Positions 7,441 through 37,907 of a stretch of DNA of 64,000 nt are shown here, in pieces (positions within the stretch are counted from its first letter, which is position 1; each line of letters opens with the position of its first letter). Origin of the DNA: a virus (lineage: Duplodnaviria > Heunggongvirae > Uroviricota > Caudoviricetes); IMG/VR virus record IMGVR_UViG_3300015615_000629, positions 304,711-368,710 of that record. One strand, given 5' to 3'. A program made the position numbers and the translations under genes. The notes under the pieces are model-generated. The model had not been told where the DNA came from. It ran no database searches and saw only the letters and a list, made by a program, of their open reading frames with translations.

Positions 7441-7877
7441 TACCTTACCTTTTTGACTACGGCGGCGACATCGGCACTATTTACCATAGCGTCTGACGCT
7501 TTCAGTAATTTCATTGCCATTCCGATGGCTTTTCCCTCGGAATCCAGACTTTTCAATTCATTTTCATGTGGTTTTAGGAAATCAAGTATATCCTCTTGGC
7601 TCAAATATGTTGGAAGCAAATTTTGCAAAATTCGGTTTTCTTCAACCAACTTGTCAGAATGACTTTTTGAAAGTAGGGCTTCGTTTGACTCAATGGTCTT
7701 TGTTATAATTTTGTAGACTTGTTCGTCTGTAACAGCCTTTTTAGTTCGGGTTTCAAGCAATTGAGTCTCGCCCAAAACATATCGCAAAATAGTCTTTTCT
7801 TGTTCATTTTTCTGAATAAGTGCTGTCTTGATTAGGGACTTAAGTTTTTCAATCATCATTTTGAGATTCCTTTGCAA
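7440..7877 (-). CDS. GatB/YqeY domain protein
   Basis: LK..IKTALIQK...ILRYVLGE...EN.ILQNLLPTYLSQEDI...IGMAMK pattern; about 140 aa. Confidence 0.7.
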   Translation of the reverse strand: MQRNLKMMIEKLKSLIKTALIQKNEQEKTILRYVLGETQLLETRTKKAVTDEQVYKIITKTIESNEALLSKSHSDKLVEENRILQNLLPTYLSQEDILDFLKPHENELKSLDSEGKAIGMAMKLLKASDAMVNSADVAAVVKKVR

Positions 7878-12408: not shown

Positions 12409-13353
12409 TCTTGAGCCTCTGTAACAACTATAGCGATCAAATCTCGCCAAAATCTACCAGGATTCTTTTTAACGTGGAAAACGATATCGAACTTTTCATC
12501 TGTTAAACGATTTGTTTCGATTTTATCGAAATAGTCGCCAAATCTATAGTGCTCTTCAGTTTGATGTTCTACGCCGTTAGGAAATCGTCTTATTACGTTC
12601 GTATAGACACGGTCTAGGCCGATTTGTTTAGCAGTTTCTCGTTCTACTTCTAAAGACTTTTCTTTAGTATCGGACTGAATTAAAAACGATTTTATCATAA
12701 TAGTTTACCAATAATTCTTCCAAATAATCCCCCGAACACAATGCCGCTAGAGATAGTTAAGACAACACGCCAAACGGGCAAACCACTCTTGTAGGAAAAA
12801 TTTGATACGATTAAATAAACGAATGCGATAAAAACGAAAATTGTAAGAAATACCATTTCTTTTCTTTCTCGTGTAGAGTCCTGTTACCCCTTCTGGTGTT
12901 ATCTCACCTACGATTTGGTCTCGCTCCCCAATCGTGCAGCAGGAGTTTTCAAATAAAGCGTATGTATATGGGTCTTTAATGGGCTTGCTAAGGTCTATCT
13001 GACCTTTGGCATTCTTTTCCCATTTGCGACCATGCCTTACTATACCATATCTCGTTCTATCGTAAAACCTGCCGTATTTGCGGCCATACACCCTAACAAT
13101 TTGTCCGCATCTGTATTCTTTGCCTTTTCTGTCGTTCATTCAAACATCTCGTCGTTCCATTTTCGGTTTATTTCAACGGCTTTAAAACGATAATAATCTC
13201 CATGAAACTCCCATTTGTTTTCAGATATCTTTTCGAAGGTAGGGACTTCATTCTGAATAAATTCTTCGGCTAATTGTTGTGTGGAAAATGCCCCAACAAT
13301 ATATTCTTTAAGGTCTTTTCCGCCAAACATTACGAAAAAGAGTTGCATTTAAG

Positions 13354-13423
13354 TAGCCCGTAAAAGAGTCGAACTTTTCAACCATGTTTAGGAAACGCGG
13401 TGCCATATTCCCCTGGACGGGCC
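13354..13423 (-). tRNA. tRNA-Arg(CCU), compact form
   Basis: Acceptor GGCCCGT/ACGGGCT-A, loop TT-CCT-AA, T arm AAAAG-TTCGACT-CTTTT identical to the tRNA-Arg(ACG) at 34599. Confidence 0.75.
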
Positions 13424-16875: not shown

Positions 16876-16975
16876 TAGGAGCAGAGGGAATCGAACCCCC
16901 ACTTGGAGCTAATCAGGACTCCACCTTACGGCCGAGATTATAAGTCTCGTGTGCTAACCTTTACACCATGCTCCC
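16876..16975 (-). tRNA. tRNA-Ile(UAU) with 32-nt variable region
   Basis: Acceptor GGGAGCA/TGCTCCT-A, anticodon arm CGAGA-CTTATAA-TCTCG, T arm GGGGG-TTCGATT-CCCTC. Confidence 0.85.
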
Positions 16976-17573: not shown

Positions 17574-17602
17574 ATCGTAGCACAATTACAACAATTCGTC
17601 AA
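17574..17602 (-). promoter_or_regulatory. Sigma70-like promoter
   Basis: TTGACG-N17-TACGAT with TGC extension. Confidence 0.55.
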
Positions 17603-18265: not shown

Positions 18266-19477
18266 TCATTCTGTTACCTTTAATAAAGCATATTTACTCT
18301 TGCCCGAACGTATAACTATTGCAGCACAGTCGAATTTCAAAAAAGATATATCATTCGTAACGCGACGGTTATTCACGTAAATTCCGCCATGTTCAATGCT
18401 ACGTCGTGCTTCACTTTTACTTTTTGCTAAGCCAACCTTACATATAGCTTCGCTCAACAAAGTTCCAACAACTATATCACAACTTGGAACATTAGAAAAT
18501 ATCTCTTTTAATTGAGCATCATTTAAATCAATTTCTCCACCAAAAAAGATATTCGTTGCTCTTAAAGCAGTCTCTAAACCGCCTTCTCCATGTACAATTC
18601 TAGTTATTTCTTCTGCCAAACGTTTCTGGCTCGCCCTGTTTCCTGGGTTTTTCTCTCGCTCAGCATCCAAATCTAGAATTTCTTCATGGCTCAATTCTGT
18701 AAAGAATCGGAGGCATTTACCCACATCCGCATCGGCCGTGTTGTACCAAAACTGATAGAATTCGTATGGGTTGGTTCTGTGGGGCGACAACCAAATCGCC
18801 CCTGATTCGGTTTTCCCCATTTTAGAACCATCAGATTTAGTCAACAAAGGGAAAGTCAGTCCATAAAGTTGAACTTGCTTCGTCCTACGTGCTAAATCAA
18901 TCCCCGCCGTAATATTTCCCCATTGATCGCTGCCACCTATTTGCAAAGTACAACCATATTGTTCGTTCAAATAAACAAAGTCATATGCTTGTAATAGCAT
19001 GTAACTGAATTCTGTGTAACTCAATCCAGTCTCTAACCTAGATTTAACAGAATCCTTGGACAACATCACATTTACAGGAAAATTCTTGCCAACATCTCTT
19101 AAAAAAGATAAAAAATTGAGGTCTCTAGTCCACCAATGATTGTTTACCCTAATCGGAGAATCAAGAATAAAGTCAAAGGTCTGCAAAATCGAAGCAATAT
19201 TGGCTTCGATTACATCTTGAGAAATTAAATTGCGTTCCTCACTCTTGCCACTCGGATCGCCAATCATACCCGTGGCCCCGCCCAAGAGCACAATGGGCCG
19301 ATGGCCTGCCTTCTCAAAACGCCTTAACATTAAAATGGCCATTAAGTGGCCGACATGAAGGCTGTCAGCAGTTGGGTCGAAACCAGCGTAGAGAGTCTGA
19401 CTTTTAGATAAGTCAATTGCTGGCTCGGTGGATTGGTGAATCAATCCACGCCATTTTAGATCGTCAAGGAGATTCAT
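18266..19477 (-). CDS. tyrS: Tyrosyl-tRNA synthetase
   Basis: YAGFDPTADSLHVGH, QIGGSDQWGNI and KMGKT motifs, C-terminal S4-like domain; likely start MNLLDDLKWRG. Confidence 0.97.
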   Translation of the reverse strand: MNLLDDLKWRGLIHQSTEPAIDLSKSQTLYAGFDPTADSLHVGHLMAILMLRRFEKAGHRPIVLLGGATGMIGDPSGKSEERNLISQDVIEANIASILQTFDFILDSPIRVNNHWWTRDLNFLSFLRDVGKNFPVNVMLSKDSVKSRLETGLSYTEFSYMLLQAYDFVYLNEQYGCTLQIGGSDQWGNITAGIDLARRTKQVQLYGLTFPLLTKSDGSKMGKTESGAIWLSPHRTNPYEFYQFWYNTADADVGKCLRFFTELSHEEILDLDAEREKNPGNRASQKRLAEEITRIVHGEGGLETALRATNIFFGGEIDLNDAQLKEIFSNVPSCDIVVGTLLSEAICKVGLAKSKSEARRSIEHGGIYVNNRRVTNDISFLKFDCAAIVIRSGKSKYALLKVTE

Positions 19478-22435
19478 TGTTTCCTTTGTGTCCAATACCT
19501 TTTGCGTTGTAATCGAAATCCTCTAGATTGTATTGTTTAAAATTGTTTTTTTCTGCCCATTGGTTGTGTTGTATTAAGTCTTGCCTAATTCTTTCAATGG
19601 CTACCGGAATGCCTTTTTCTATTGCTTCCTGAACAATCGACATTATATTAATTGCACAAGGCAACGCTAAGGCATCCTCAACCTTATAATGTACGGCCAA
19701 AAAATAGCCTAACGCACCCACCAAACGATCTTCGTCTGTGTTCAAGCCTATTGGAAACTTAAGCAGATTCATTTTTAACCTGTTTCATATTTTCGTGTAA
19801 CTTGTCAAGAGCATCCGCGAAAGCAGTGAACCCTTCAATATCTTTAAATCTTTCTCTTAACCCAAGTGAATCTCTGCCCTGTGGTCCCTCCTCTGCGAGG
19901 CAGTGTGAATATGCTTCTACCGCATTTTTCAAGCCGGAATCGCCCAACTCCAATGGCGAGAGGCTTGTTTTCATAAAAACAACCGTACAGAATTGACTAT
20001 AATTTGGCTCGCCAAGAGTATGGGGAGCGTAATACATCTGACCGAAGACATCCTCAAATATGAAGCCATGTGCCCTGACTTTTAAAAGGCTCACGACATG
20101 GCTATCAAGACATTCGTAACAATATTCGCCATCTGGTAGACCTATACGTGCATATTGCCCATCAAATTTCGTTGAACCATATCCACCATAACAAAAACCA
20201 TGACGGACAATCTCCCCATCCGGACATAACATTGCCCCACTTTCACTAGGCCCTAAATCTTTAATCTGCTTTCCGCAGTGGTCGCAAGTTCTCATTTTTG
20301 AACCTGTTTTGGTATTTCTCTAAAAGAACGTTTTTATCAAGCGTGTTGATTAGCCAATCTTCAAATAAATCTGCAAACAATTCGGAATTATATTTGTCGT
20401 CCTCGTCACATTGACAGACATAAATTCCCTCTGCGTCTTCCCATAACCCGTAAATTATACTCTTGTTGCGTCTATATTTAATGGTTGCTAGTCGTTCGCC
20501 CTTTCTCCAGGTAACAACTCCCATCGCACAACAACGAAGGTCAAGCAATTCCTTGGCCGCAGCCGGAAGGGACTTGGTGAACATTATTGTTTTTCCCATT
20601 CATAAACGGGTTGTATCCAATCGGTTTGCTGCCAAGCAGGCGGTGTTCTAGGGCCTTTTTTGTATAGGTTTATTTTGGGAATTTCTTTCTCGCCATAGAA
20701 ACATATCTCGCCAAATTGGAAGGGCCGAAAATCATCATCCCAGTTGTTGTCAAGATTGATTCCTGCTACCAAATTTTCTTTTATAAAATCTGTTGAAAAA
20801 TTGTCTGGGTGGAGATATCCATAAACTACTTCTTCGCCCTCCAATTTCGCCATTACGGCATGTACACCATCTGCACCGTAATCGGTTAGTTTAAATGGGA
20901 ACCAACTTTTAATGGCTTTTCCATCTACTTCTTTAGGGAAGTTCAGATGTGGCCCCTTCCACCAATCTAAGTAGTTTACATCCCACGGGAAGACGGCTTC
21001 CTCGAATCTATCAACTTCTTTAAGAACTAAGATATCATTAGCCAACGATTCGCAAACTGGGTCTACCAAATATTTATATGGAATCTTTCCCAAGATATCA
21101 ACAGCAAAGTCAAGATTGACCCACCAAACTGCATATTTTGCAATCTTGACATGAAAGCCAAAATAATCTTCTTTGGTTTCAAATTTGGCGGTTGATATTA
21201 CTTCTTCAAATTTACTTTGGGCTTCTTTCTTGCGACCTTTTTGAAGTAAATATATTACTTCTTTTGCTTGATAATTACTCGAATCCCCAAGCCAGTCGTT
21301 CACATCTATTCCTTTACATGATAGGTTTGTCCACAAGTAGGACAAACCCTTGCCGAAGCTCTTGATTTCTTTATGTTTTCAAAATATGTAGACTGTCTTC
21401 CGATAACGATAGAAAACGTTTCAGCAAGAAAAAACGCCAAAACGAAAAGAAGCGGTATTGAAAAAGTAAGCCATAGCGGCGGCGAATCATACTTTTTAGT
21501 TAGAAAACGTGGAAGTTTCATGTTAAATCTCTAAAGGAAAGTTTACCGCCAATGTCCAATATCTAACATATTATCTGACCTAAACCCTAAGCCCGAATCC
21601 TCTATGCCAAATTCATACTTCTTCTGTGCATCCCAAATCGCTAGAATTCCAGCGTCTACGGGAAAACCCATAGGAAATTCTAAAGACAAAACCGTAACGC
21701 CAATTATGTCATACTTTTTCATCATTTGGAATAAAGTATAAGCCCACATAACCGCTTCCGCAGGCGTCCGAGACATATAAGCCAAAAACAAAAGGGCTGG
21801 TAACGTTACCCTCGGCTCATATCCGTTGTTCCTGCAAGAAAGCGATAGCCTATCCCATAGAATCTGCAATATCGGATGATTATCCCTTACCTGCTCATCT
21901 GTGGCTATTTTAATCTCCTGTATATCGGCCATCATACACTTTATAAATACTTCCGATTGCTCCATGCTCATCGGAACACGTTGGTTTGATGGCACATCCG
22001 TTAAGGATTTGATATCGAATTCTTTTTCGTCAACAAAAACAGTCATTACGGAGCAATTCCTATTTTAAAAGCAACAAAACAATAAACTTTTTCATTCTAC
22101 TCTCCTGGCGGATAAATGCCACGACTAGGGCTATATTGAAGCGGTAAACAGTAACCTATTTTGTAGCCCCCACCAACCATAGCAACCCAATAATAATTTC
22201 TATTCCATAATTTCAAGACGGTCGCCAATAATCTTACCGGCCAATAAGTCCAGTTACCCCAAAGAGTAAAAGGAAAACGCCGGCTCGTCTTAAGGCTGAG
22301 TTTTCCAGGTGTTTTCATCGCCCAATGGGTGGAAAATACATTGCTGCCGGTTGTCTGATACCAAATTCCATCCTTTGGCAACTGCTTTTTGATATCTTCG
22401 ACCCATTTGTGGACTTCGTCTAATCTCATTGTTTT

Positions 22436-27360: not shown

Positions 27361-27431
27361 AGCCCGCAGCCAGAATCGAACTGGCATCAGGAAGGTACGA
27401 ACTTCCCATTCTACCATTAAACTATACGGGC
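27361..27431 (-). tRNA. tRNA-Thr(CGU)
   Basis: Acceptor GCCCGTA/TGCGGGC, anticodon arm GGAAG-TTCGTAC-CTTCC, T loop TTCGATT. Confidence 0.92.
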
Positions 27432-28141
27432 AATTCTACTTCTTATTGTTTTCTTTCCAAACGTAATAACGCCCCGCAATCGCAGCACCAGCTAACGCAA
27501 GCCCAATAACTATAAAAATCAATCCACCAAATTTTCGAAAAAATGGGTTGTTGATTAATTCCTCTAATAAGGTTAATTTCCCCATCTCAATTCTCCTTCT
27601 TCGGAACCTGAATCACCAACACCCAACGATTTAAACGCTCTTCCGAAGTTTTGCCATTAGGATCGCCCTGTAACATCTCCACACAGCAACTTAAACCCCT
27701 GGCAATGTCCAATTGTGCCTGCGCCCGCCGAACCGCTGCCTTACATTTTCTTTCCAAATCCGGAGATAAAGGCTTGCCATCAAGTCCATTCACATCACCA
27801 GTTATCTCAATGTCACCAACAGATGGTAACTGCTTTAATAATTCATTTCTCTGAGATAACCACTCAGCCGCCCGATCTTCACATTCGCTGGTTCGCTCAC
27901 TCTGTTCTTTTATAAGTCTTTCGTAGACAACGACCTCTTTTTCCATCACCCCAACAGCAGCAACACTTTCTTCCGCTGTCTCTTTATACTCAACAGCATC
28001 CACATATTGCTTGATATTAAAAAGAATCGAAGCCGCCAAAACAATCCCAAGGAATGCTTTCATTTTTTAATCGCCCATCCAACTAAGAATAAACTAATGG
28101 CGTATACCAAAACAACAAATATAAGTAAAGCGTAAACCAAC

Positions 28142-29311
28142 TTAAACCATTTCATACTGCAATTGACGATCAACCATTCGCAGAACCTTCTTTGTAACGT
28201 CTACTGGCTGCTCTGTCAATCGTAATCCCGCCACCAATTCATCCGATATGCCACTATATTCACTACTTCTGGCTTCCTTAACAAATCTCATGTCCCTTAT
28301 CGGATAAATATTGTTCAACCTAGTCGAGGTCAATATGCCATTTGTAAACATGTTCATATGTTCATTAGTTACAACATTATAAAATGTGGTTTTTTCATGC
28401 ACAATTTTCTTGTTTACTATCTTTACTTTGCCATTTCTTGTATATGTTGTAGTTCCAATAGGTGAACTCATCATATTAGTAAACATACCCTTTTCAATAT
28501 TGAAAATACTATGACCCTTGCCATCGTCAATAGTTCCCAACGACGAACCGTCACTAAATTTAACCAAAGCATAAGAAAGTCTAGTAAATGGCTTCATAAT
28601 CCAAATTGGTTTGGCTTTATCAAGTCTGGCAGTGTCAAAGTTCCAAACAAGTAAGGTATCTGAATAATCTACATTTTCAATATTCTTATAGCCATTTGGT
28701 AACGAAACCCTAGTGCCAGCCATTAAGCACAACCACGGATTTGGATCGGATTGAATTGCATTTCCATAAACCGTTCCATCTGCATTTATGGCATAGGCGG
28801 CAACCCATACAGGATTTGCCCCATCGGTTAAAGTAATGCCGTCTAAAGTAAAGGGAAGAGTAAGGGAGTCTTCATAGGAACCAGTAAACGGCGTAAACGC
28901 CATTGTCGATACATGATCACTTGTTGTCGGACTGTCCGTATTGGCAGCATAAACAAAACCATATTCTATTACGCTATCACCGCCATTGCCAATGGTTGCG
29001 GTCATATGTATATTAAGATTTTCGACTTCTAAAGAGTCTGTAGTGATTTCAAGTGTTGCAGCCGTTGCAGGAGCCGTATATAACTCCCATTCTGGAGCCT
29101 GCCCCGCTTCCACCAGACGCTTTAAATTGACAGCTTCCTGGTCGTAAAGAGTGACAATATCTCCATGCTTTCGAACGATAGATGGAGAACCACCCAATAA
29201 ACCTATTGAGGTAAAGGTAGATTTAGCCTGAGCAGCAATCTCGGCTTCCGCTGGAGATAAAAGATGACCTTCTGTGTCCTTGAGATTAATCCTAAATGTT
29301 AGTGAATACAT
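28142..29311 (-). CDS. Probable virion protein with beta-rich domain and C-terminal Hint domain
   Basis: CLMAGTRV...KNIENV...FYNVVTNEHMNMFTNGILTS; TATATA 5 nt upstream of the ATG. Confidence 0.7.
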   Translation of the reverse strand: MYSLTFRINLKDTEGHLLSPAEAEIAAQAKSTFTSIGLLGGSPSIVRKHGDIVTLYDQEAVNLKRLVEAGQAPEWELYTAPATAATLEITTDSLEVENLNIHMTATIGNGGDSVIEYGFVYAANTDSPTTSDHVSTMAFTPFTGSYEDSLTLPFTLDGITLTDGANPVWVAAYAINADGTVYGNAIQSDPNPWLCLMAGTRVSLPNGYKNIENVDYSDTLLVWNFDTARLDKAKPIWIMKPFTRLSYALVKFSDGSSLGTIDDGKGHSIFNIEKGMFTNMMSSPIGTTTYTRNGKVKIVNKKIVHEKTTFYNVVTNEHMNMFTNGILTSTRLNNIYPIRDMRFVKEARSSEYSGISDELVAGLRLTEQPVDVTKKVLRMVDRQLQYEMV

Positions 29312-29654
29312 TTAGATATATAGGTCAATCTTGACAATTTCCTAATTTACCAACAATTTTACCGCAATATGGGCATGGCCAACTTTCTACCATTTTAACC
29401 ATATCATCGTATGAAACACTAGTGCCCGACTTCCACTCCCTAGTATCGGTTTTCCCAATAACCCTTAAATGCCAAATTATAGTCTCATGCTTGGTAACAT
29501 TTGACGAAATAACCGCATCGTAGCCAAGATTTTTACATGTTTCTAACAGATTATATACAATATTCTTGTTTTCATCTGACAAAAGGATATCGCACGGAAA
29601 CTGCTTTTGCTTGGCAAGGTATTCGGGAAGTTTTTCTAAGAACGTCATAAAACG

Positions 29655-29683
29655 AGTATGACAAATTTGGGTGAAAAGATCAA
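29655..29683 (-). promoter_or_regulatory. Sigma70-like promoter, leaderless
   Basis: TTGATC-N17-CATACT, 6 nt before the ATG at 29648. Confidence 0.45.
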
Positions 29684-29847
29684 ATCCAATTGGAGTCGAT
29701 TACGTCATCTATGGATTTTGGTTTTCTATCTCTTTTTTCTTGAACATGTTCGCAAAATATGAACACAAAACCCATTAGACTAAAAAATACGCCAAGAAAT
29801 ACGATAGCTCCAACAACACAATCTAAAATTGACATTTGTTTGCCTTT

Positions 29848-30459
29848 TTATTCTATCACTTCCGCATCCCCTACACCAGGAATTTCCAAAATATCCGAAT
29901 ATTTTAAAATATCAGAAACCCTTAGTTTTCTAGCGTCAGAACGATATCTGGAATATTTAGAATATTTAATAAGGACAATAGGGGTCTTGCTAACAACTAT
30001 ATCAATGTAAAATGTTTGATTTTGTCCTATAGTAGATACCCTGAAAAGAGAACCAAATTCAGGTGAACTCAATAACCAAGGTGTCTTCATTATAGTAATC
30101 TCATTCGGTATCGCCTTTCTTACAACTAACTTAGTTCCTTTCTTGACCATTCTTCTATTGTTTTTTGCTTCCATCCAAATAGAAAAGTAATACATCTTAT
30201 CAGGGCTCAAAAAATATCCATGAACCATGTCTTCTTCAATAACGATATCATCAGGACATGTAATTACCATTCCAGATTTAATTGCATCTATCGCAAAAGC
30301 ATCCTCGTTATCGAATACAACATGCTTTTCAGTTGGTTCTTTCGCTGGTTCGACTTTGCTAATTAAGATGTTTTCTGTGAAAACAGGGGATTTTTCTGCG
30401 GTTTTGAACAAAACCAAGAATATACAGAAAATTCCAAGAAGGATTGCGGCGGCTTTCAT
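29848..30459 (-). CDS. Exported hypothetical protein (paralogue of 10522..11166)
   Basis: Signal anchor and shared motifs; TAAATA 5 nt upstream. Confidence 0.7.
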   Translation of the reverse strand: MKAAAILLGIFCIFLVLFKTAEKSPVFTENILISKVEPAKEPTEKHVVFDNEDAFAIDAIKSGMVITCPDDIVIEEDMVHGYFLSPDKMYYFSIWMEAKNNRRMVKKGTKLVVRKAIPNEITIMKTPWLLSSPEFGSLFRVSTIGQNQTFYIDIVVSKTPIVLIKYSKYSRYRSDARKLRVSDILKYSDILEIPGVGDAEVIE

Positions 30460-30780
30460 ATCTTTATTTACGGTCGAAAAGCATTATTATAATTAGGATT
30501 TTCTAAAGGATACCAGCGAATTTGACTGTCATTGTCCTTTTTAAGTTCGTCTAGACTTTTTTGCAATTCTAATATCTTTTTGTTTAGCTCTGCAATTTCC
30601 TTGTTAAGAGCCTCTTCTTTGCTTTTGTCGGGTTTGGGCTGGGTTTGTTGGATGCATGGCGGTTCAATCTTGTTGGGTTCTTCGGACTTATCTCGAAAAA
30701 AGAAAAGTGCTACAAAGAACACGACAGTTGCAAAAATAACCAAATACTCTTTCTTCATAGGAGTATTTAGGGTTATTAAG

Positions 30781-30864
30781 TTCGAGAGGCACGAATCGAA
30801 CGTGCGTAGGGTTTCCCCAGACTTGGTTCAAAGCCAAGCTGCCATACCAACATAGCACTCCGGA
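30781..30864 (-). tRNA. tRNA-Gln(UUG) with long variable arm
   Basis: U1-A72, anticodon arm CTTGG-CTTTGAA-CCAAG, V arm GGG-GAAA-CCC, T arm GCACG-TTCGATT-CGTGC; C3:C70 mismatch. Confidence 0.75.
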
Positions 30865-30868
30865 TCAA

Positions 30869-30942
30869 GGTGGCTGACGGGAATCGGACCCGCGTAAAAC
30901 CTCATTCACAGTGAGGCACCTGAACCAACACAGGACAGCCAC
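30869..30942 (-). tRNA. tRNA-His(GUG)
   Basis: Acceptor GTGGCTG/CAGCCAC-C73, anticodon arm CCTCA-CTGTGAA-TGAGG, T loop TCCGATT; G-1 not encoded. Confidence 0.85.
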
Positions 30943-30944
30943 AG

Positions 30945-31015
30945 CGATGACGACGGGAATCGGACCCGCGTTACAACTTAGACAGAGTTGCGTGTTACCA
31001 TTACACTACGTCACC
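30945..31015 (-). tRNA. tRNA-Asp(GUC)
   Basis: Acceptor GGTGACG/CGTCATC-G, anticodon arm CAACT-CTGTCTA-AGTTG (U37), T loop TCCGATT. Confidence 0.88.
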
Positions 31016-31203
31016 GTATTTCTTATTCCTTGTCACTGAAAACGTATTGACCGTTCTCTTCTGTTAACATAAACTTCTTTTTATCAAATCTTTCTTCCGG
31101 CAAATCTCCCATTACTCCCGAATGACCATGCACTACATATTCGTCTTCTGTTTCGGATAATGTTCTTAGATTTGAAAATACATGTGCCATATCTGATCCT
31201 CGT

Positions 31204-31968
31204 TTATTGATATACTTGTTTTAGATTTACGCTATAGCAATCTTCTGAATCCGAGTATTTCCAAGTTACATTTCCTTCCAAATCTTTTTTGACTATGGCG
31301 TATCTATCTCCTATTAATCCAGACAGCATTTCATTCGAAATTTGGGAAAGCAATAATCTTTGAAAGTGATCCTTTATGGCCCTTTCTGCATTTATAACAT
31401 CGCGATACATGAATTGATCATCAATTACGTCAAATAAATCACAAATTTTAGAAAGTGTTTGCTTAACAATATCCATATTAAAAGTACCAAAAGAAAGAAG
31501 TTTATTATCTATTTGGTCCTTAAATTCCCTTATACTCATACTTCCGTTTACTTTACAAAACATCTCTTGTATTTCATCTATAATTTTTTTGCACTTCTCA
31601 ACTTCTATATCGCTTAAATTAGATATTTCTACTAACTTCTTAAAGGTATCGCAATTAGTACCTGCAATTCTTACTACAAGGCGAACAAGTTCCCGCAGGC
31701 TCATTTGATACCATTCTATTGTAACAACAGTTCGAGGAACATCTGGACATTTTGTATGCATGTCCTTAAATGCTTCAATGTTTTTACATTTGTAAATGGC
31801 ATCACAAAAGGTATTTCTTATTCTTCCCAAAAGAAAGTCCCTAATGTCTTGTTTTGTATAATGCCGATGCGACCCAACCATAGTGAAATTTAGAGTACCA
31901 TTATCTGTCAAATTCCGCACGGTTCCAGGTGTTACGCCAAGTATTTTTGCAACTTCTTTAGTCTTCAT
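31204..31968 (-). CDS. Excisionase/MerR-type HTH protein
   Basis: MKTKEVAKILGVTPGTVRNLTDNGTL...VGSHRHY. Confidence 0.7.
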   Translation of the reverse strand: MKTKEVAKILGVTPGTVRNLTDNGTLNFTMVGSHRHYTKQDIRDFLLGRIRNTFCDAIYKCKNIEAFKDMHTKCPDVPRTVVTIEWYQMSLRELVRLVVRIAGTNCDTFKKLVEISNLSDIEVEKCKKIIDEIQEMFCKVNGSMSIREFKDQIDNKLLSFGTFNMDIVKQTLSKICDLFDVIDDQFMYRDVINAERAIKDHFQRLLLSQISNEMLSGLIGDRYAIVKKDLEGNVTWKYSDSEDCYSVNLKQVYQ

Positions 31969-32075
31969 ATCTTTATATAGTTAAATTTTATATGAAACAG
32001 CACAAAAAGAAGAATTTGTTTTGGTGCTTCCGTTCTTTTCTATCTGCAAGGCTTCTATATATTAGCAGCCCCACG

Positions 32076-32127
32076 ACCCGTGACAAGGACCGGTAGCCCA
32101 AACGGCAGCCTTGTCACGGGTTTTTTT
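32076..32127 (+). terminator. Intrinsic terminator or 3' end of a small RNA
   Basis: 13-bp perfect stem ACCCGTGACAAGG/CCTTGTCACGGGT followed by a T-run. Confidence 0.65.
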
Positions 32128-32129
32128 AG

Positions 32130-32201
32130 CTCCGGTGCCTGGGTACGATCCAGGAACAGTTGAGTAACAATCAACCGTGATACCAGTTTCACCACACCGG
32201 A
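32130..32201 (-). tRNA. tRNA-Asn(GUU)
   Basis: Acceptor TCCGGTG/CACCGGA-G, anticodon arm GTTGA-TTGTTAC-TCAAC, T loop ATCGTAC. Confidence 0.88.
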
Positions 32202-32266
32202 ATAGTTTTATTTAAACTTTTTCAACAGGAGTCGAAATTATTCGAGTCCAGTTACTATATAAGAGT

Positions 32267-32884
32267 ATGCCTTATGTAGCAACGTGTACTTGTTGTGGCA
32301 TAGAATTTACTAGGCCAACAAGATGTCATCCTAAACATCATCCAAAATGGAAAGGAAAACATTTTTGTAGTGTTAAGTGTCGCCACTTGTCCCAAGTTAC
32401 CTCTATCACTCAGCCATGCGGCTGGTGTAATAAATCGGTAACAAGAAACCTAGCAGAAGCAAAAGGTTCTGCTTCTGGCCTTTTATTTTGCAATAATTCT
32501 TGTTCAGCATCTTACAGCAATACCAAACGTAGAAAATCCAGACGTTCCAAATGTGAGGTAATGCTGTTTGATTTATTGAGCAAAGAATTTCCAAATGTTA
32601 CAATGTTGCCAAATGATAAAACCATGTTAGACGGGCTAGAAGTGGACATTGCAATTCCGGATATCCAACTCGCTATTGAATGGAACGGAATAGTTCATTT
32701 CAAACCAATTTATGGTCAGTCGAAACTTGATCGTATCCAAAATATAGACAAACAAAAACTTGAAATTGCTGAAAACAAGGATATAAATCTAATTGTAATT
32801 CCCGACCTAGTTTCCAAGGACGAATACGTAAAGGAAGCATTCCACAAAATAAGTTCAATCATACGTGAGTTGTTAAAAAACTAA
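32267..32884 (+). CDS. Cys-rich repeats plus Vsr/DUF559-like PD-(D/E)XK nuclease; probable free-standing homing endonuclease
   Basis: CxxC...FCSxxC repeats, then LEVDIAIPDIQLAIEWNGIVH...D..K. Confidence 0.7.
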   Translation: MPYVATCTCCGIEFTRPTRCHPKHHPKWKGKHFCSVKCRHLSQVTSITQPCGWCNKSVTRNLAEAKGSASGLLFCNNSCSASYSNTKRRKSRRSKCEVMLFDLLSKEFPNVTMLPNDKTMLDGLEVDIAIPDIQLAIEWNGIVHFKPIYGQSKLDRIQNIDKQKLEIAENKDINLIVIPDLVSKDEYVKEAFHKISSIIRELLKN

Positions 32885-32885
32885 G

Positions 32886-32959
32886 AGGGCAAGGCCGGAA
32901 TCGAACCGATGCGACATTTTTGTTAACAGCAAAATGCTCTACCACTGAGCTACTCGCCC
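32886..32959 (-). tRNA. Second tRNA with GUU anticodon (Asn), atypical
   Basis: Acceptor GGGCGAG/CTTGCCC with U73, anticodon arm TTTTG-CTGTTAA-CAAAA, weak T stem. Confidence 0.7.
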
Positions 32960-33486
32960 TTAAATTTTATCCATTCCTCGACAACATCCTTGTAAAGTTT
33001 CTTTCTCCCCTCTCTTTTATTTTTTACAAATTTAAGCAAGTCTTTGAAAAGAGATAAACTTTTCTCCCAATTTCCCTTTTTATACTCGATTGCTTCTAAA
33101 ATGAAGAAATTAATTGGTTTCGCATCGTAGTATTTCAGCCAGTCTGAGTCGTTCCCTGTAGACTTTTCTAAAAGCCATCTTACAGATTCTGCAAAATCTT
33201 CTCCTATATCACCTTCACAATTACCGCTGGCTCGACTAACCTCGTGTACGCCATGCCCCAGTTCATGAAAGATTGCATTAAATTCACAATCATTATAAAC
33301 AACTACATCCCCATACTTTTCATTTATACCTATCCATAACGCACTGCCTTCGGCAGTGTCCAATGTAAAATTTCTTATTTCTTTAAAAGGGATATCATTT
33401 ACTGTGAAAAAATTATAGGCATACCTTATTTTATTTTCAAAATGTGCCACCACTCTTACTTCGCTCATGGCAAGCGTTGCTCGCAT
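32950..33486 (-). CDS. HExxH zinc metallopeptidase-like protein
   Basis: IFHELGHGVHE...EDFAES. Confidence 0.55.
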   Translation of the reverse strand: MRATLAMSEVRVVAHFENKIRYAYNFFTVNDIPFKEIRNFTLDTAEGSALWIGINEKYGDVVVYNDCEFNAIFHELGHGVHEVSRASGNCEGDIGEDFAESVRWLLEKSTGNDSDWLKYYDAKPINFFILEAIEYKKGNWEKSLSLFKDLLKFVKNKREGRKKLYKDVVEEWIKFKGE

Positions 33487-33693
33487 CCCTTGTTTCCTCC
33501 AAAATATTCGTCTAAATATTCAATTTCTTTGGCCAGTGCTAGTGCCTTTGCTTCGGCCACTAATTTCTCCATTTCGGCAATTTCTTCGGGAGTATATCGC
33601 CTTTCTCGATCTTCTTTCAAATATTGATTAAAAGCATCGATATCCGCTTGCGTCGAAGTTGGACCTAAATGCATAATTTCATCCTTATTCAAG

Positions 33694-33764
33694 TGACCCC
33701 GGTGGTGCTTGCAACCACATCGTCCTGGTTAAGAGCCAAGAGCTTTTCGTTAAGCTACGGAGTC
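33694..33764 (-). tRNA. tRNA-Lys(CUU), atypical D and T loops
   Basis: Acceptor GACTCCG/CGGGGTC-A, anticodon arm CTTGG-CTCTTAA-CCAGG, T loop TGCAAGC, no GG in the D loop. Confidence 0.8.
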
Positions 33765-33768
33765 AAAG

Positions 33769-33842
33769 GGCCGACGACTGGGTTCGCACCAGCATAAACT
33801 TGTTTACAAAACAAGCGCCTTACTAAATCGAGCCACGTCGGC
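33769..33842 (-). tRNA. tRNA-Thr(UGU)
   Basis: Acceptor GCCGACG/CGTCGGC, anticodon arm CTTGT-TTTGTAA-ACAAG, T loop TGCGAAC. Confidence 0.85.
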
Positions 33843-33858
33843 AATTTTCTTATATTTT

Positions 33859-33948
33859 GCCCCGCCTTCACCCAGCGAGGCAGAACGGCCAATTTTGTAT
33901 ACAGGATCGTTAGTCCAGAGGCCGTAGGTTGTCGCCCTTTCGATGGCG
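33859..33948 (-). ncRNA. Unknown structured RNA in the tRNA array
   Basis: GC-rich intergenic segment with three consecutive stems. Confidence 0.4.
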
Positions 33949-33949
33949 T

Positions 33950-34210
33950 TTATTCGTTGTCTTTCCTACGTTGGAAATCTTCTATTATTTCAGATAACAA
34001 AGGCAAACGTCTAAAAGACGACAAACGCTTAAATTCTGTAATTTCATGTGGGCCAATAAACTCTTTCTCAGCCTCTAGCCAAAATTGCAAATCTAAGTTC
34101 TGTGGGCACCCAGCATCAAGCCATTTGAAATAAGCAGACTTAGAAATTAATTCTTTTTTATAATACGAAATATTTTCATCTGCAATGCTCATCGGGTGGA
34201 GGTTACTCAT
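33950..34210 (-). CDS. DUF2934-like protein
   Basis: ISKSAYFKWLDAGCPQNLDLQFWLEAEKE. Confidence 0.7.
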   Translation of the reverse strand: MSNLHPMSIADENISYYKKELISKSAYFKWLDAGCPQNLDLQFWLEAEKEFIGPHEITEFKRLSSFRRLPLLSEIIEDFQRRKDNE

Positions 34211-34520
34211 ATCTTGTTTTAATGTCGCCTAGATAGGTTGTGCCGTGTTCTTTGTAAACTTTGTATATAGAGTAATATTCTTCACCCCGATACATTAATT
34301 CATCAATCAAATACTGTTTATCTTCTGGTAGGACGACATGTGGTATGTGAGCATAGCCTACAGTGCCATGTTGTCCGCAATTACACTTCCAATGCCATCC
34401 TAATGGATTACTATAATTAACCATTCCGGATAGTTTAAGTTCTTTATTGCCGCAAGATTTACAGGTTTGTTCGTCTAAGAAATCTTGCATTGCTTGACGT
34501 TCAGGGTCTTCATTCATAAG

Positions 34521-34594
34521 CACGGATGTAGGAAATCGAATCCTAAAAGCGAGAGTTTTGGAGGCTCTCCGTCGTACCCACCGACTGCATCCGT
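34521..34594 (-). tRNA. tRNA-Trp(CCA)
   Basis: Acceptor ACGGATG/CATCCGT-G73, loop CT-CCA-AA, T arm TAGGA-TTCGATT-TCCTA. Confidence 0.85.
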
Positions 34595-34598
34595 AAAG

Positions 34599-34667
34599 TA
34601 TCCCGTAAAAGAGTCGAACTTTTCATCCGAGTTTCGTAAACTCAGTGCCAATTCCGTTGGACGGGAC
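34599..34667 (-). tRNA. tRNA-Arg(ACG), compact 69 nt
   Basis: Acceptor GTCCCGT/ACGGGAT-A, anticodon arm TGAGT-TTACGAA-ACTCG, T arm AAAAG-TTCGACT-CTTTT. Confidence 0.8.
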
Positions 34668-34683
34668 AAATTTTATAAGCCTT

Positions 34684-35319
34684 TTAGACTGGAAGCGTCC
34701 TTACTATGTCTTCTGCAAAATAGTCATCTCTTAATACTGTCAGAACTTCGCCTAGCCAGTTTGTGCCTTTCCAAGGCTTGCCATTTTTGGCGTCTTTGGC
34801 ATCGATTCCGATTCCCCATATTGTATCATATGGAGATGCTTCAACTAACATTGTTCCGGCAGTTTTCCGCAACACTTCCAACATATCTGGATTTTGAGTA
34901 AATTTGTAATAATTGCCTGTGAAAACTATGCTTCGTGCATTTGCATCCCATCTTCCCTTATCGAAGCCTTTTACCGTTCTGCCAAGTGCTTTTTGTTCAC
35001 GTGGCGATTTGGCTTCCATTATCTTTTTGAATGTATCTTTATCTCCGAAGAACAGGGCTTTTTGAGCCATCATATACTGTTCGGCGGTGTTATAGGTAAT
35101 TTTGTTTACTGTAAATTTGGAATGACTCCATTGGGAGAAAGGGGCTTCGTTCCAAAAGTAAGTAAATTCAGTGTACTTTTTCATTGTTTTTGGTTTCCGT
35201 GTAATTTCGTAGGAACCATCTGGTAAAATTTTATATTCAAGGTCATAAAATGATGGTTTTGCCGAAATATATTCGGATTCAATGTTTAGTTCGATTTCTT
35301 TATCCATAAGTGCGACCAC
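34684..35319 (-). CDS. NADAR (YbiA-like) family protein
   Basis: FSQW, TAEQYMMAQKALFFGD, KFTQN, VEASPYDTIWGIG and NWLGEVL motifs. Confidence 0.93.
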   Translation of the reverse strand: MVALMDKEIELNIESEYISAKPSFYDLEYKILPDGSYEITRKPKTMKKYTEFTYFWNEAPFSQWSHSKFTVNKITYNTAEQYMMAQKALFFGDKDTFKKIMEAKSPREQKALGRTVKGFDKGRWDANARSIVFTGNYYKFTQNPDMLEVLRKTAGTMLVEASPYDTIWGIGIDAKDAKNGKPWKGTNWLGEVLTVLRDDYFAEDIVRTLPV

Positions 35320-35384
35320 TGAGAATTGAACTCAGTCTATTTGCTTGGGAAGCAAGTGTGCGAAGCCGTTAACACTTTGGTCGC
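35311..35384 (-). tRNA. tRNA-Gly(CCC)
   Basis: Acceptor GCGACCA/TGGTCGC-A, loop TT-CCC-AA, T loop TTCAATT. Confidence 0.85.
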
Positions 35385-35388
35385 GGAG

Positions 35389-35459
35389 AGCGGGTAGGGA
35401 GAATCGAACTCCCATAACCAGTTTGGAAAACTGGAGCTTTACCATTAAGCAATACCCGC
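35389..35459 (-). tRNA. tRNA-Gly(UCC)
   Basis: Acceptor GCGGGTA/TACCCGC-U73, anticodon arm CCAGT-TTTCCAA-ACTGG. Confidence 0.93.
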
Positions 35460-35464
35460 TTAGT

Positions 35465-35977
35465 CTAGATATTTTTAAAGTAATGCGAAAATTTCGGTAA
35501 TAATTGATTCAAGGATTGAATATCGTTTTGTTTAAATGCTCCTTCAGCGTCTTTTACAAGATTTCTCCAATATAAAGCATTGTATAACTCGGTAGGAACA
35601 TAAAGAAATCCTTGTGTGTCTTCTTTAACTGGTGTATTGGGACCGCCATCTTTTATATTTCCTGCTGGTTTTACACCAACCGCAAATCGCAACATAATAG
35701 ATTTGTTTCTTTTTTCATAATCCACATATTTTAACCAACCGTCTTTTAATGGCCCATTAAGTTCTTGAATTAGTCTTTTTTTGACTGTTTCTACCATATT
35801 TTTATATGTAGTCATTTCTTCGGGGGAGATATTTTCGAATCTACCATTTGCTCGCATGGGATGTTTCCCATCTGCTCCAAGAGTATTCCAACGACTGTGC
35901 AATCCTCGTAAGATATTTCTCTGCGTAGAGTAATCGAATTGTTCCTGTTCTAACAGGTAATCAATGAATGTTTTCAT
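35465..35977 (-). CDS. Candidate capsid-internal protein
   Basis: N-terminus MKTFIDYLLEQE resembles the T4 capsid-targeting sequence; TATATA 4 nt upstream. Confidence 0.55.
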   Translation of the reverse strand: MKTFIDYLLEQEQFDYSTQRNILRGLHSRWNTLGADGKHPMRANGRFENISPEEMTTYKNMVETVKKRLIQELNGPLKDGWLKYVDYEKRNKSIMLRFAVGVKPAGNIKDGGPNTPVKEDTQGFLYVPTELYNALYWRNLVKDAEGAFKQNDIQSLNQLLPKFSHYFKNI

Positions 35978-35992
35978 ACGTTATATACCCGC

Positions 35993-36211
35993 TTAATCAT
36001 AGAATCCAAGTTCTTGTGCCTCGGATACTAATTGATTTAATATTTCAAATGATCTTTTACGATTTTCTTTTTTAAAGTTCATTAACTCGTCTGAGTCAAC
36101 TTGCACTTTCAACAAACCTTTTCCCACAATTTCCTTTAAGAAATATTCGTGGGAAACATTCATTAATTCTGCGGCTTGGTCAGTTGTAAGTTGTTGTGTC
36201 ATTGGAATCAC
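35993..36211 (-). CDS. Excisionase-like HTH protein (type seen as a PIN-toxin partner)
   Basis: LTTDQAAELMNVS...L.QLVSEAQELGFYD. Confidence 0.6.
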   Translation of the reverse strand: MIPMTQQLTTDQAAELMNVSHEYFLKEIVGKGLLKVQVDSDELMNFKKENRKRSFEILNQLVSEAQELGFYD

Positions 36212-36226
36212 GTTTCGTTGTGTAAG

Positions 36227-36300
36227 TATCCCCGGCTGGATTCAAACCAGCAACCTGCGGATTAGAAGTCCGCTGCTCTATTCAGTTGAGCTACGAGGAC
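36227..36300 (-). tRNA. tRNA-Arg(UCU)
   Basis: Acceptor GTCCTCG/CGGGGAT-A, anticodon arm GCGGA-CTTCTAA-TCCGC; A19 with U56 (compensatory). Confidence 0.92.
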
Positions 36301-36304
36301 ATAG

Positions 36305-36377
36305 TAGCCGGTATCCGAGTCGAGCGGATTCTTCATCGTTCGAAGCGATGCGTGCTAGTCCCTCACACTCACCGGCC
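36305..36377 (-). tRNA. tRNA-Arg(UCG)
   Basis: Acceptor GGCCGGT/ACCGGCT-A, anticodon arm CATCG-CTTCGAA-CGATG, T loop CTCGACT. Confidence 0.82.
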
Positions 36378-36382
36378 AAAGT

Positions 36383-36874
36383 TTAACTAACCATTGCTTC
36401 TTTCCAATATTGGAGATTATTTTCGCTTATTTCTCCGTTGCAGTATTTTGCCAAGTCCAGAAGAGCATTATAGAACAAACTGGCTTCTTCTGCAAACCCT
36501 AATATGGTAAGGCATTTCAATACACGTGTGATTCGTAAGTAATTATGGTCGCCTGAGAATACCCAACTGCTATTTTTTCGTAGTTTGACTAATTTGCCAT
36601 TGTAGGCAACTGCAAATCCCCAAAATTTGAGCATTCGGTAGAATGCTTCTAGCATCTTTTCTCTTAATGCTGGATCGCTTTTAAATAATTGTATTTGTTC
36701 GGCGTCGAGTAAGGGTGCATCTGGGTTGAAGTTACTTGGTTCTGTAAGTGGAAACAGCCATTGGATATAACTATGGTCTGCTTCAAGTCGGTGGTCTTTG
36801 GAGGCTATAATTTCATCAATTTTATAGCCTTCATCGTTACCGATTTTACTACGGTAAAATTCTACTGCTTGCAT
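36383..36874 (-). CDS. Opioid growth factor receptor (OGFr_N) domain protein
   Basis: LEADHSYIQWLFPL.EPS.FNPDAP...ML.FWG...HNYLRITRVLKCL. Confidence 0.9.
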   Translation of the reverse strand: MQAVEFYRSKIGNDEGYKIDEIIASKDHRLEADHSYIQWLFPLTEPSNFNPDAPLLDAEQIQLFKSDPALREKMLEAFYRMLKFWGFAVAYNGKLVKLRKNSSWVFSGDHNYLRITRVLKCLTILGFAEEASLFYNALLDLAKYCNGEISENNLQYWKEAMVS

Positions 36875-36892
36875 TTTTAATCCTTATTTAAA

Positions 36893-36963
36893 TCGACCGC
36901 ATAGGAGTCGAACCTATGTTTACTACTCATCAGATAGTCGTCCTACCGTTGAACGAGCGGTCG
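36893..36963 (-). tRNA. tRNA-Ile(GAU)
   Basis: Acceptor CGACCGC/GCGGTCG-A, anticodon arm ACTAT-CTGATGA-GTAGT (G37). Confidence 0.85.
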
Positions 36964-36979
36964 GGTTATTATAACGGAG

Positions 36980-37050
36980 TAGGCCGCCTGAGAATCGAAC
37001 TCAGATCTAAAAATTAAAAGTTTTTTATTCTCCCATTGAACTAGCGACCC
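36980..37050 (-). tRNA. tRNA-Lys(UUU)
   Basis: Acceptor GGGTCGC/GCGGCCT-A, anticodon arm AAAAA-CTTTTAA-TTTTT. Confidence 0.88.
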
Positions 37051-37054
37051 AAAA

Positions 37055-37133
37055 AGGCATCGTGCCGGATCGAACGGCTTGGAATCATCTTTGCAGGATG
37101 ACGGGCCGCCACGACCCATTAACCTACGATGCC
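37055..37133 (-). tRNA. tRNA-Cys(GCA), enlarged D region
   Basis: Acceptor GGCATCG/CGATGCC-U73, anticodon arm TCATC-CTGCAAA-GATGA. Confidence 0.82.
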
Positions 37134-37148
37134 ATTGGCTAAATTAAA

Positions 37149-37161
37149 TTGTCAAAGAACA
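37149..37161 (-). promoter_or_regulatory. boxA-like (NusB/NusE) antitermination site
   Basis: TGTTCTTTGACAA directly after the first post-terminator tRNA; matches rrn boxA GYTCTTTRANA. Confidence 0.6.
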
Positions 37162-37163
37162 AG

Positions 37164-37235
37164 GGCCTTCGGTGAGAATCGAACTCACTACCGCTTCCTT
37201 ACCAAGGAAGAACTCTACCGATGAGCTACGAAGGC
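37164..37235 (-). tRNA. tRNA-Thr(GGU)
   Basis: Acceptor GCCTTCG/CGAAGGC, anticodon arm CTTCC-TTGGTAA-GGAAG, T loop TTCGATT. Confidence 0.94.
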
Positions 37236-37253
37236 AAATCACTTTTCCAAACG

Positions 37254-37288
37254 AAAAAACCCGCTTCAGGTTTGAACCTGAGCGGGCT
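37254..37288 (-). terminator. Intrinsic terminator (attenuator) inside the tRNA operon
   Basis: GCCCGCTCAGG-TTCAAA-CCTGAAGCGGG followed by TTTTTT. Confidence 0.85.
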
Positions 37289-37342
37289 TTAAGTGATTCA
37301 GCCGACCCAGGTTTTATCCTGAGCCGTGTCTTGTTGACTGGT

Positions 37343-37432
37343 TCAGGACGAGATGATGGTGCATCCTTGGCGCGTATTAATATCGCACCAATTATGCTGT
37401 TTATCTCGTCTTGTACCAATCATGAGTGACAT
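37343..37432 (-). CDS. Leader peptide, 29 aa: MSLMIGTRRDKQHNWCDINTRQGCTIISS
   Basis: Hand-translated. The stop codon overlaps the first pairing segment, and codon content mirrors the downstream tRNAs. Confidence 0.8.
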   Translation of the reverse strand: MSLMIGTRRDKQHNWCDINTRQGCTIISS

Positions 37433-37465
37433 TTTAGTTTCTTCTACTTTCGTTCTAACTGTAAG

Positions 37466-37537
37466 TGGCGGGAGAAGGAATCGCACCTCCGACCTTGAGT
37501 TTATGAGACTCACGAGCTACTACTGCTCCACCCCGCT
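37466..37537 (-). tRNA. Initiator-like tRNA-Met(CAU)
   Basis: A1:C72 mismatch, fMet-type GCGGGG-TG-GAGC...GCTC scaffold, loop CT-CAT-AA; anticodon stem lacks the three G-C pairs. Confidence 0.85.
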
Positions 37538-37546: not shown

Positions 37547-37621
37547 TGGTGGCAGGGGAGGGCCTTGCACCCCCAACCTTCGGGTTTAACCCCGACGCTC
37601 TATTTTTTGAGCTACCCCACC
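37547..37621 (-). ncRNA. tRNA-like RNA with a 6-nt anticodon loop and encoded CCA
   Basis: GGTGGGG/CCCTGCC-ACCA, GCTC/GAGC D stem, TCGGG-GTTAAA-CCCGA, T loop TGCAAGG. Confidence 0.75.
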
Positions 37622-37628
37622 AATTAAG

Positions 37629-37710
37629 CGGCCAGGGATGGTAACGAGCCACCGACCTCCGCTACTTGCCATTGCTGACTTTCGCGGTGCTCTCACTGAG
37701 CTACCTAGCC
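37629..37710 (-). ncRNA. tRNA-like RNA with a GNRA-capped stem in place of the anticodon loop
   Basis: GGCTAGG/CCTGGCC-G, D stem, CCGC-GAAA-GTCA-GCAA-TGGC-AAGTA-GCGG, AGGTC, T arm GGTGG-CTCGTTA-CCATC. Confidence 0.75.
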
Positions 37711-37750: not shown

Positions 37751-37874
37751 CGCACTTAGTAAAACCTCCTTTTGGTCAGAGTTACTAATTGCGGCCGGAA
37801 TTGAGCTATTCCTTTCGGACTTACTCAAGGATTACCGGCCCTTGTGCTGTTTCGCTCTTTTCTTGCCGTCAACT
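37751..37874 (-). ncRNA. Structured 5' leader or ncRNA of the tRNA operon
   Basis: Two adjacent long interrupted hairpins downstream of a promoter. Confidence 0.5.
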
Positions 37875-37879
37875 CCCCT

Positions 37880-37907
37880 ACTATAGCGTGATTTTTTGGG
37901 TTGTCAA
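37880..37907 (-). promoter_or_regulatory. Sigma70-like promoter of the tRNA operon
   Basis: TTGACA-N16-TATAGT. Confidence 0.75.

Follow-up and report, generated by a model that had tools for sequence, protein, structure and literature searches.

Why phages carry tRNA genes is an old question, and the answers set against each other are compensation for codon usage and replacement of tRNAs that the host destroys. On the minus strand of the window, the 64,000 nt stretch of phage DNA that was analysed (C1:304711-368710 of a virus record of 572,167 bp that has direct terminal repeats and is rated complete), a short ORF and a putative terminator precede a long tRNA block, and an initial annotation had read them as a codon-sampling attenuator. 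The codon-matched leader and the alternative-hairpin attenuator of that reading are supported, but a ribosome-free ON state and the sampling of individual isoacceptors, both part of it, are not. The switch region is a real, selected regulatory element, and it is highly probable that a multivalent ribosome-mediated transcription attenuator controls the phage tRNA block. The phage probably makes each of its tRNA blocks only when ribosomes slow on the matching codons.

The phage encodes a gp23-type capsid protein whose closest match in GenBank is from the uncultured 595-kb phage LR756511.1 (70 % identity), and 80 IMG/VR loci match it at 74–80 %. Because the phage tyrosyl-tRNA synthetase (window 18266-19495, minus strand) is nearest to Planctomycetota enzymes, mostly from Pirellulales at approximately 60 % identity, the host is probably a planctomycete. 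Sigma-like factors are encoded, and neither NusB nor an RNA polymerase beta subunit was found in the phage genome, the latter being consistent with transcription by the host enzyme. The genome reads well in code 11. Genes for tRNAs with anticodons CUA and UCA, at C1:30802-30894 and C1:286239-286310 (-), lie outside the three tRNA blocks described below and are possible amber and opal suppressors; a CUA tRNA is also found in LR756511.1.

The leader and the tRNA genes it matches

The 29-codon ORF is present as first written (Table 1) and has a purine-rich, weak ribosome-binding region. Its codons 5–27 specify, as claimed, only Ile, Gly, Thr, Arg, Asp, Lys, Gln, His, Asn, Trp and Cys, all 11 being present, and the 18 tRNA genes between 37235 and 27361 carry exactly 11 amino acids. 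The earlier count of 20 downstream tRNA genes with 19 anticodons is reached when two genes missed by default ARAGORN are added to these 18: one for Ile(UAU), whose variable arm is long (16876-16975, minus strand), and one for an Arg(CCU)-like tRNA (about 13350-13430, minus strand). The two additional genes lie 20–24 kb downstream, their codons are absent from the leader, and there is a promoter-like site at 17602. The binomial probability of the composition of the leader core is approximately 2–5e-6 (22 of 23 residues match if codon 4, Met, is counted), and among the 1.14 million six-frame codons of the genome the leader is the sole run of at least 23 such residues to cover all 11 amino acids.

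The match is to amino acids, not isoacceptors. A hand count that allowed for wobble reproduced the 15 cognate anticodons reported initially, but the exact codon is in the leader for only 11, and synonymous redraws of the window leader give 11.4. Isoacceptor-level matching was also rejected when leaders were pooled (147 exact codons versus 141 ± 5.6 in synonymous redraws), and the preference for U-ending codons read by wobble was not significant (46 versus 41.3 expected, P 0.15).

The genome contains three tRNA blocks, A, B and C, with C being the window block. Matching leaders for blocks A and B were predicted beforehand and then found at both, each of them between a terminator and a promoter of the type found at block C. 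When core residues of the three leaders were compared with the three blocks in a 3×3 matrix, 22/23 (C), 16/17 and 14/15 residues belonged to the leader's own block, versus 0–3 for the other blocks. The Tyr codon in leader B is accounted for by an atypical Tyr(GUA) gene within block B. It had been pointed out that tRNAs for the missing amino acids, if on the same transcript, would make the match coincidental; the amino acids absent from leader C are served by the other blocks, which have leaders of their own, and this answers the point. Short ORFs and hairpins are common and 11 amino acids are half the code, which could suggest a chance ORF in front of an ordinary terminator. Against this, each of the three blocks is matched by its own leader and by neither of the other two, permutation of a blindly chosen set never reached the observed match (0/200,000), and the content of the leader shifts with the block in LR756511.1 and G034 (see below). 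We regard coincidence as exceedingly improbable.

Protein-coding ORFs also occur within the blocks. One with an HNH-like Cys/His motif, recognized by eye, lies between the Leu tRNA genes of block B (C1:300600-301350, minus strand) and possibly encodes a homing endonuclease. ORFs for OGFr_N and NADAR proteins (36383-36874 and 34684-35319, minus strand) are interspersed among the tRNA genes of the window block. Both families act on ADP-ribose; these genes would be co-induced with the block, and a link to counter-defence is possible.

Layout and conservation of the predicted switch

On the minus strand, the promoter, which has a counterpart of the same sigma70 type before each of the two other tRNA blocks, is followed by two tRNA-shaped RNAs, the initiator-like tRNA-Met gene and then the leader. 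The structured RNA with which the transcript begins has no match in Rfam. ARAGORN assigned no identity to the tRNA-shaped RNA with the encoded CCA end, which lies upstream of the switch and is possibly a decoy. Since the tRNA-Met(CAU) gene is upstream of the switch, it is not attenuated; a Met(CAU) gene also lies ahead of the leader in W01, G014, G034, G027 and G051. Host RNA polymerase would start near 37880 and copy the initiator-like tRNA, then the leader, and we infer that the 18 tRNA genes behind the terminator form a single transcript.

Table 1. Positions of the elements of the putative switch, of the other blocks and leaders, and of tRNA genes in phiCbK. Positions refer to the window unless preceded by C1 (the virus record) or L627 (phiCbK).
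Feature	Position	Strand	Description
Sigma70-type promoter	37880..37907	-	11/12 consensus matches, 16-nt spacer
Structured RNA at very start of transcript	37768-37875	-	z -2.6 versus shuffles
Second tRNA-shaped RNA	37628-37710	-	internal loop and small hairpin in place of the anticodon arm; no Rfam hit
tRNA-shaped RNA	37547-37621	-	encoded CCA end, 6-nt anticodon loop; Rfam tRNA 43.6 bits; cloverleaf fold
tRNA-Met(CAU), initiator-like	37465..37537	-	1:72 mismatch and A11:U24; lacks the three G-C pairs in the anticodon stem
Leader ORF, 29 codons	37343..37432	-	codons 5–27 only for the 11 amino acids of the downstream block
Segment 0 (codons 4–10)	37403..37422	-	predicted to pair with 37354-37335 in ribosome-free RNA, hiding segment 1; default-OFF arm
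Segment 1	37340..37348	-	contains the stop codon; predicted to pair with segment 2 when a ribosome is stalled upstream
Segment 2	37317..37326	-	predicted partner of segment 1 (ON) or segment 3 (OFF); best-conserved motif
Segment 3	37300..37311	-	predicted partner of segment 2 (OFF) or segment 4 (antiterminator, ON)
Segment 4	37277..37288	-	5' arm of predicted terminator, 3' arm of predicted antiterminator
Segment 5 and six-U run	37254..37270	-	3' arm of predicted intrinsic terminator
tRNA-Thr(GGU), first gene under the putative attenuator	37163..37235	-	tRNA gene prediction
BoxA-like element	37149..37161	-	directly after the first tRNA
Block of 18 tRNA genes (block C)	27361..37235	-	Thr x3, Cys, Lys x2, Ile, Arg x3, Gly x2, Trp, Asn x2, Asp, His, Gln
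Block A	C1:113.8-116.6 kb		Glu, Ala, Pro, Val, Gly-GCC and Met tRNAs
Leader A	C1:116761-116690		23 codons; between same-type promoter and terminator
Block B	C1:295.7-302.1 kb		Leu, Phe, Ser and atypical Tyr tRNAs
Atypical Tyr(GUA) tRNA gene	C1:299930-300020	-	in block B; reduced D arm
Leader B	C1:302246-302181		21 codons; between same-type promoter and terminator
phiCbK tRNA genes stated to be absent in its genome paper	L627:6400-6650 and 7380-7480		relaxed ARAGORN and by eye

Segments 1–5 lie where they had been placed, and helices are predicted for all four pairings, with energies of -14.2 (1:2), -14.8 (2:3), -17.3 (3:4) and -20.3 (4:5) kcal/mol. A sixth segment that was absent from the initial annotation, segment 0, consists of codons 4–10, which pair with the stop region in the ribosome-free RNA. 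Conservation of the stems in relatives had been proposed as a check; 10 homologous elements retain helices 1:2 and 2:3 and nine retain 3:4 and 4:5, with G027, which has a different antiterminator, left out of two of these helix counts. As MAFFT alignments of the attenuators were not structure-true, base pairs were counted on motif-anchored helices instead. These revealed near-invariant cores, with two-sided changes at the edges of all four helices, and hence the evidence from covariation is limited to a few columns. An intrinsic terminator before the first regulated gene and an overlapping, mutually exclusive antiterminator are thus predicted and conserved, and in the homologues the stop codon is either inside segment 1 or no more than approximately 12 nt before it.

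The boxA-like site reported after the first tRNA was also located, and such sites are found near the start of all three blocks (C1:341859, 116002 and 301598), those of blocks A and B likewise after the first tRNAs. By analogy with rRNA operon antitermination, the site may be an aid to read-through and would probably assist it across the ~10 kb of the block. BoxA, together with the sigma-like factors encoded by the phage and a terminator that is the equilibrium fold of the RNA (see below), could also be used to argue that a phage protein or Nus-type antitermination carries the polymerase past the terminator and that the ORF has another role, encoding a functional peptide, or is a relic. However, boxA is downstream of the terminator, the stop codon is kept in or close to segment 1 in the homologues, and only the composition of the peptide, which follows the tRNA set, is conserved. 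Antitermination of this kind is therefore a very unlikely explanation.

Ribosome position and the folding model

Equilibrium folding of full-length or truncated RNA did not separate the states of the switch, and the full-length RNA always forms the terminator. As the terminator always wins at equilibrium, the switch must depend on folding kinetics, and a simplified, purpose-written model of co-transcriptional folding with a static ribosome of fixed footprint was used. In this kinetic model, the termination probability for the window element is 0–0.12 with stalls at codons 5–26, 0.88–0.96 with the ribosome at codons 27–30, and 1.0 after in-silico mutation of segment 1. The predicted sensing window, i.e. 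the codons at which the model reads through, thus coincides with the matched codons 5–27. The modelled switch was reproduced in six of nine elements (the window element, that of the phage's own block A, G034c, W01, G027 and G051), failed in the phage's own block B and in G034a, and was inconsistent in G014. The original proposal that a stalled ribosome would give ON and a ribosome at the stop codon OFF agrees with the kinetic model and with the conserved helices. An early hairpin in the leader is a candidate pause site for the polymerase.

A different outcome was obtained for the proposal that the absence of a ribosome would also give ON, unlike trp. Only 2 of 200 synonymous redraws and none of 200 codon-order shuffles capture the stop region as strongly as segment 0 does, and the ribosome-free leader folds at -44 kcal/mol versus -27 ± 5 kcal/mol in shuffles. 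The modelled ribosome-free termination probability of the window element is 1.0 at two of the three rates and 0.05 at a tenfold slower rate, and it is 0.64–1.0 in six of seven other elements, W01 reading through. With segment 1 captured by the free leader and the terminator formed, in a rate-sensitive manner, in seven of the eight modelled elements, the claim is probably wrong, and the model points most likely to classical three-state attenuation rather than induction by loss of translation. The read-through of the window element at the slowest rate and of W01 could be accommodated by a two-state switch in which any loss of translation, including that of the ribosome itself, means ON, as in a general alarm resembling antibiotic-induced leader switches, and binding of the initiating ribosome alone might break segment 0. 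Yet capture by the free leader beats that in shuffles, termination prevails at the other rates and in most other elements, and codons sorted by block would be needless for a general alarm. We consider two states unlikely.

In the preferred three-state attenuator, RNA with no ribosome would have segment 1 captured by segment 0, and 2:3 and the terminator would form (OFF). A ribosome at codons 27–30 would cover segment 1, again with 2:3 and the terminator (OFF). A ribosome lingering at codons 5–26, because one of the 11 amino acids lacks its charged tRNA, would block or disrupt segment 0, allowing 1:2 and then the 3:4 antiterminator to form (ON). Since the tRNAs produced would decode the very codons that caused the stall, the loop would be one of negative feedback on decoding capacity, and the tRNA set of the genome would be divided over three such units. 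The three states are those of the model, and we infer translation of the leader, its coupling to the host polymerase, relief of the stall by tRNA and the natural signal. The position of the initiator-like tRNA upstream of the switch fits three-state logic, because such a sensor would need initiation.

Matched leaders in other phages

The expectation that leader content would track the tRNA set of each block holds across other phages as well as within this genome. In LR756511.1, the same element lies behind a Met tRNA and the block also has Ala, Glu, Phe, Pro and Val tRNAs; the 35-codon leader has gained these residues, 29/29 core residues match and all 17 amino acids of the block are present, and a separate Leu/Ser/Tyr leader precedes a Leu/Ser/Tyr block. 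The block behind the Met tRNAs in G034 is cut to Ile, Lys, Gln, Cys, Trp and His and its leader is reduced alike, with the Thr, Asp, Asn, Arg and Gly tRNAs being grouped with Glu, Val, Pro and Ala and a second leader carrying those codons. In G036, Cys, Gly and Arg tRNAs have been added to a Leu/Ser/Phe/Tyr block and the corresponding residues are found in its leader. G045 and similar smaller phages have three units in tandem inside one array. The leaders list 4 to 17 amino acids, mostly one to three times each, across the whole ORF, and what is conserved in the peptides is not the sequence but the composition, in step with the tRNA set.

When leaders and blocks were permuted, the observed match was reached in 0/200,000 permutations for 14 chosen units, 2/200,000 for nine units from other phages, and 0/200,000 for 31 units that were chosen, from approximately 20 genomes, by a rule that took no account of composition; as the units are related, these counts show a real association, not independent events. 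Placement of G014, G034, G051 and G027 in one clade with this phage was rejected, as they yielded no close match to its gp23-type capsid, and kinship through the capsid is shown for W01 and G001 only. Hence, the attenuator, being common to these four without a close capsid gene, is not confined to one clade.

The leaders are not universal. With the detector used, many phage tRNA arrays gave no leader, among them that of L113, a relative by capsid. Leu/Ser-rich leaders in L347 (G053), L330 and L334 (G023, G032) run almost to the first tRNA and have no clear intrinsic terminator after the leader stop codon, which suggests a different read-out, e.g. Rho. Among viral contigs, the exact terminator pattern found five unrelated hairpins, a long boxA pattern found 24 loci with tRNAs at only two, and a pattern of tRNA plus boxA found 106 viral stretches. 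A three-motif attenuator pattern gave mostly chance matches in metagenome contigs, with at least three real elements, one identical to G034a, and none that was real among the matches listed for bacterial genomes.

At the DNA level, the window element was found in no cultured phage. Candidates for matched leaders are nevertheless present in the arrays of Brevundimonas phage Gurke, Sphingobium phage Lacusarx and Caulobacter phage phiCbK, while neither Acinetobacter phage phiAbaA1 nor mycobacteriophage Phabba showed a leader unit. In phiCbK_235, annotated as a hypothetical protein, 38/39 core residues belong to the seven amino acids served by the block that follows its terminator, and 0/39 to those of the next block, and a second leader, an unannotated ORF of 32 codons, matches at 18/26 core residues. 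In Lacusarx, a 22-codon leader (L624:6269-6490) matches a Ser/Leu/Thr/His/Gln/Cys/Trp/Tyr block, with a strong terminator placed after the first tRNA-Ser. In the folding model, phiCbK_235 and Gurke unit 1 switch only at the deepest stall tested, and Gurke unit 2 does not switch. In the phiCbK genome paper, codon usage is given as the reason for the tRNAs, the words leader and attenuation do not occur, and Thr, His, Ala and Tyr tRNA genes are stated to be absent (PMC3556154), though genes for Thr (near 5850-6030), His and Ala were found with relaxed ARAGORN and that for Tyr by eye. Matched leaders in a cultured Caulobacter phage make the idea testable in a model bacterium.

We lean, by a small degree, towards the view that several unrelated phage lineages audit host decoding with sets of leaders that jointly cover nearly all amino acids, and make only the tRNA blocks of which there is a shortage. 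If true, auditing leaders would be a feedback-controlled, on-demand counter to host defences that destroy tRNAs, made out of translation itself, and would control tRNA genes in a manner new to the literature.

The natural signal and comparison with known systems

Infection most likely provides the natural signal through a loss or shortage of host tRNA. Starvation would also set off the switch, but extra tRNA repairs a loss of tRNA and not starvation, and shortage or cleavage of tRNA is thus favoured. On balance, and with little to spare, we favour on-demand replacement of lost tRNAs as the main role of the attenuator. Provided that the attenuator is real, the same switch may instead answer to amino-acid starvation through uncharged tRNA, in the manner of the thr and ilv leaders, and time the expression of the tRNAs and of genes downstream to host nutrition instead of tRNA destruction. 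That the match is at the level of amino acids and not isoacceptors (147 exact codons where 141 ± 5.6 are expected) would suit such a signal, and a missing and an uncharged tRNA are indistinguishable to a stalled ribosome. However, more tRNA would cure a lack of tRNA but not a lack of amino acid, and the output is tRNA, not biosynthetic enzymes. Starvation is a possible but doubtful choice as the signal, and the two signals are not mutually exclusive. A block-wise switch, if true, would make phage tRNA genes a conditional supply, reporting which tRNAs fail in the infected cell.

Many tRNAs but no leaders were reported for huge phages (PMC7162821). No account of leader-peptide control of tRNA genes was found in the literature searched, which covers few subscription journals.

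Several known systems share single properties with the phage blocks. The Anabaena trn operon is controlled at initiation by a repressor protein. As is predicted for the phage blocks, this L-array is an inducible tRNA array, described in its report as supernumerary, normally silent and induced upon impairment of translation (PMC8421152); 'attenuat', 'leader' and 'antitermin' do not occur in the main text of that report (PMC8421152). The boxA-like motif, which directly follows a tRNA where a long non-coding transcript begins, resembles the boxA of rRNA operons (NusB/NusE/NusG), though it sits behind an attenuator, and as the phage encodes no NusB, host factors would be needed for antitermination there. 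T-box riboswitches bind one tRNA directly and do not need translation. They share with the phage switch, as it is predicted to work, a choice between terminator and antiterminator set by tRNA charging, and Rfam identified no T-box at the phage locus.

The closest likeness is to leader-peptide attenuators, which control the thr (Thr/Ile), ilvGMEDA (Ile/Leu/Val), trp, his, leu and pheA operons. In these enterobacterial systems, a stall leads to read-through, and either full translation or no translation leads to termination. Judged from its sequence, the phage switch appears to share with the thr and ilvGMEDA attenuators a short ORF with regulatory codons, alternative hairpins and an intrinsic terminator. 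It differs from them in that 4 to 17 amino acids are spread over the whole ORF rather than in tandem runs, and in a relay of six segments (0:1, 1:2, 2:3, 3:4 and 4:5), by which the ribosome would free the antiterminator indirectly. Unlike the enterobacterial amino-acid operons, the phage also has its tRNA set split over several matched units. Because the regulated genes are for tRNAs, the switch does not belong in the family of attenuators of biosynthesis and synthetase operons, though it would work alike. Escherichia coli pheST, with its pheM leader, has an attenuator on the translation machinery itself and a feedback loop via charged tRNA. In the model, the phage switch would likewise use a leader peptide to control part of the translation machinery in a loop on charged tRNA, but pheST is chromosomal, senses one amino acid and has a synthetase as output, whereas the phage switch would sense many amino acids and have tRNA as output. 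Leader-peptide attenuation, a textbook mechanism for amino-acid operons, would thereby reach tRNA genes as well, with sensors that cover as many as 17 amino acids.
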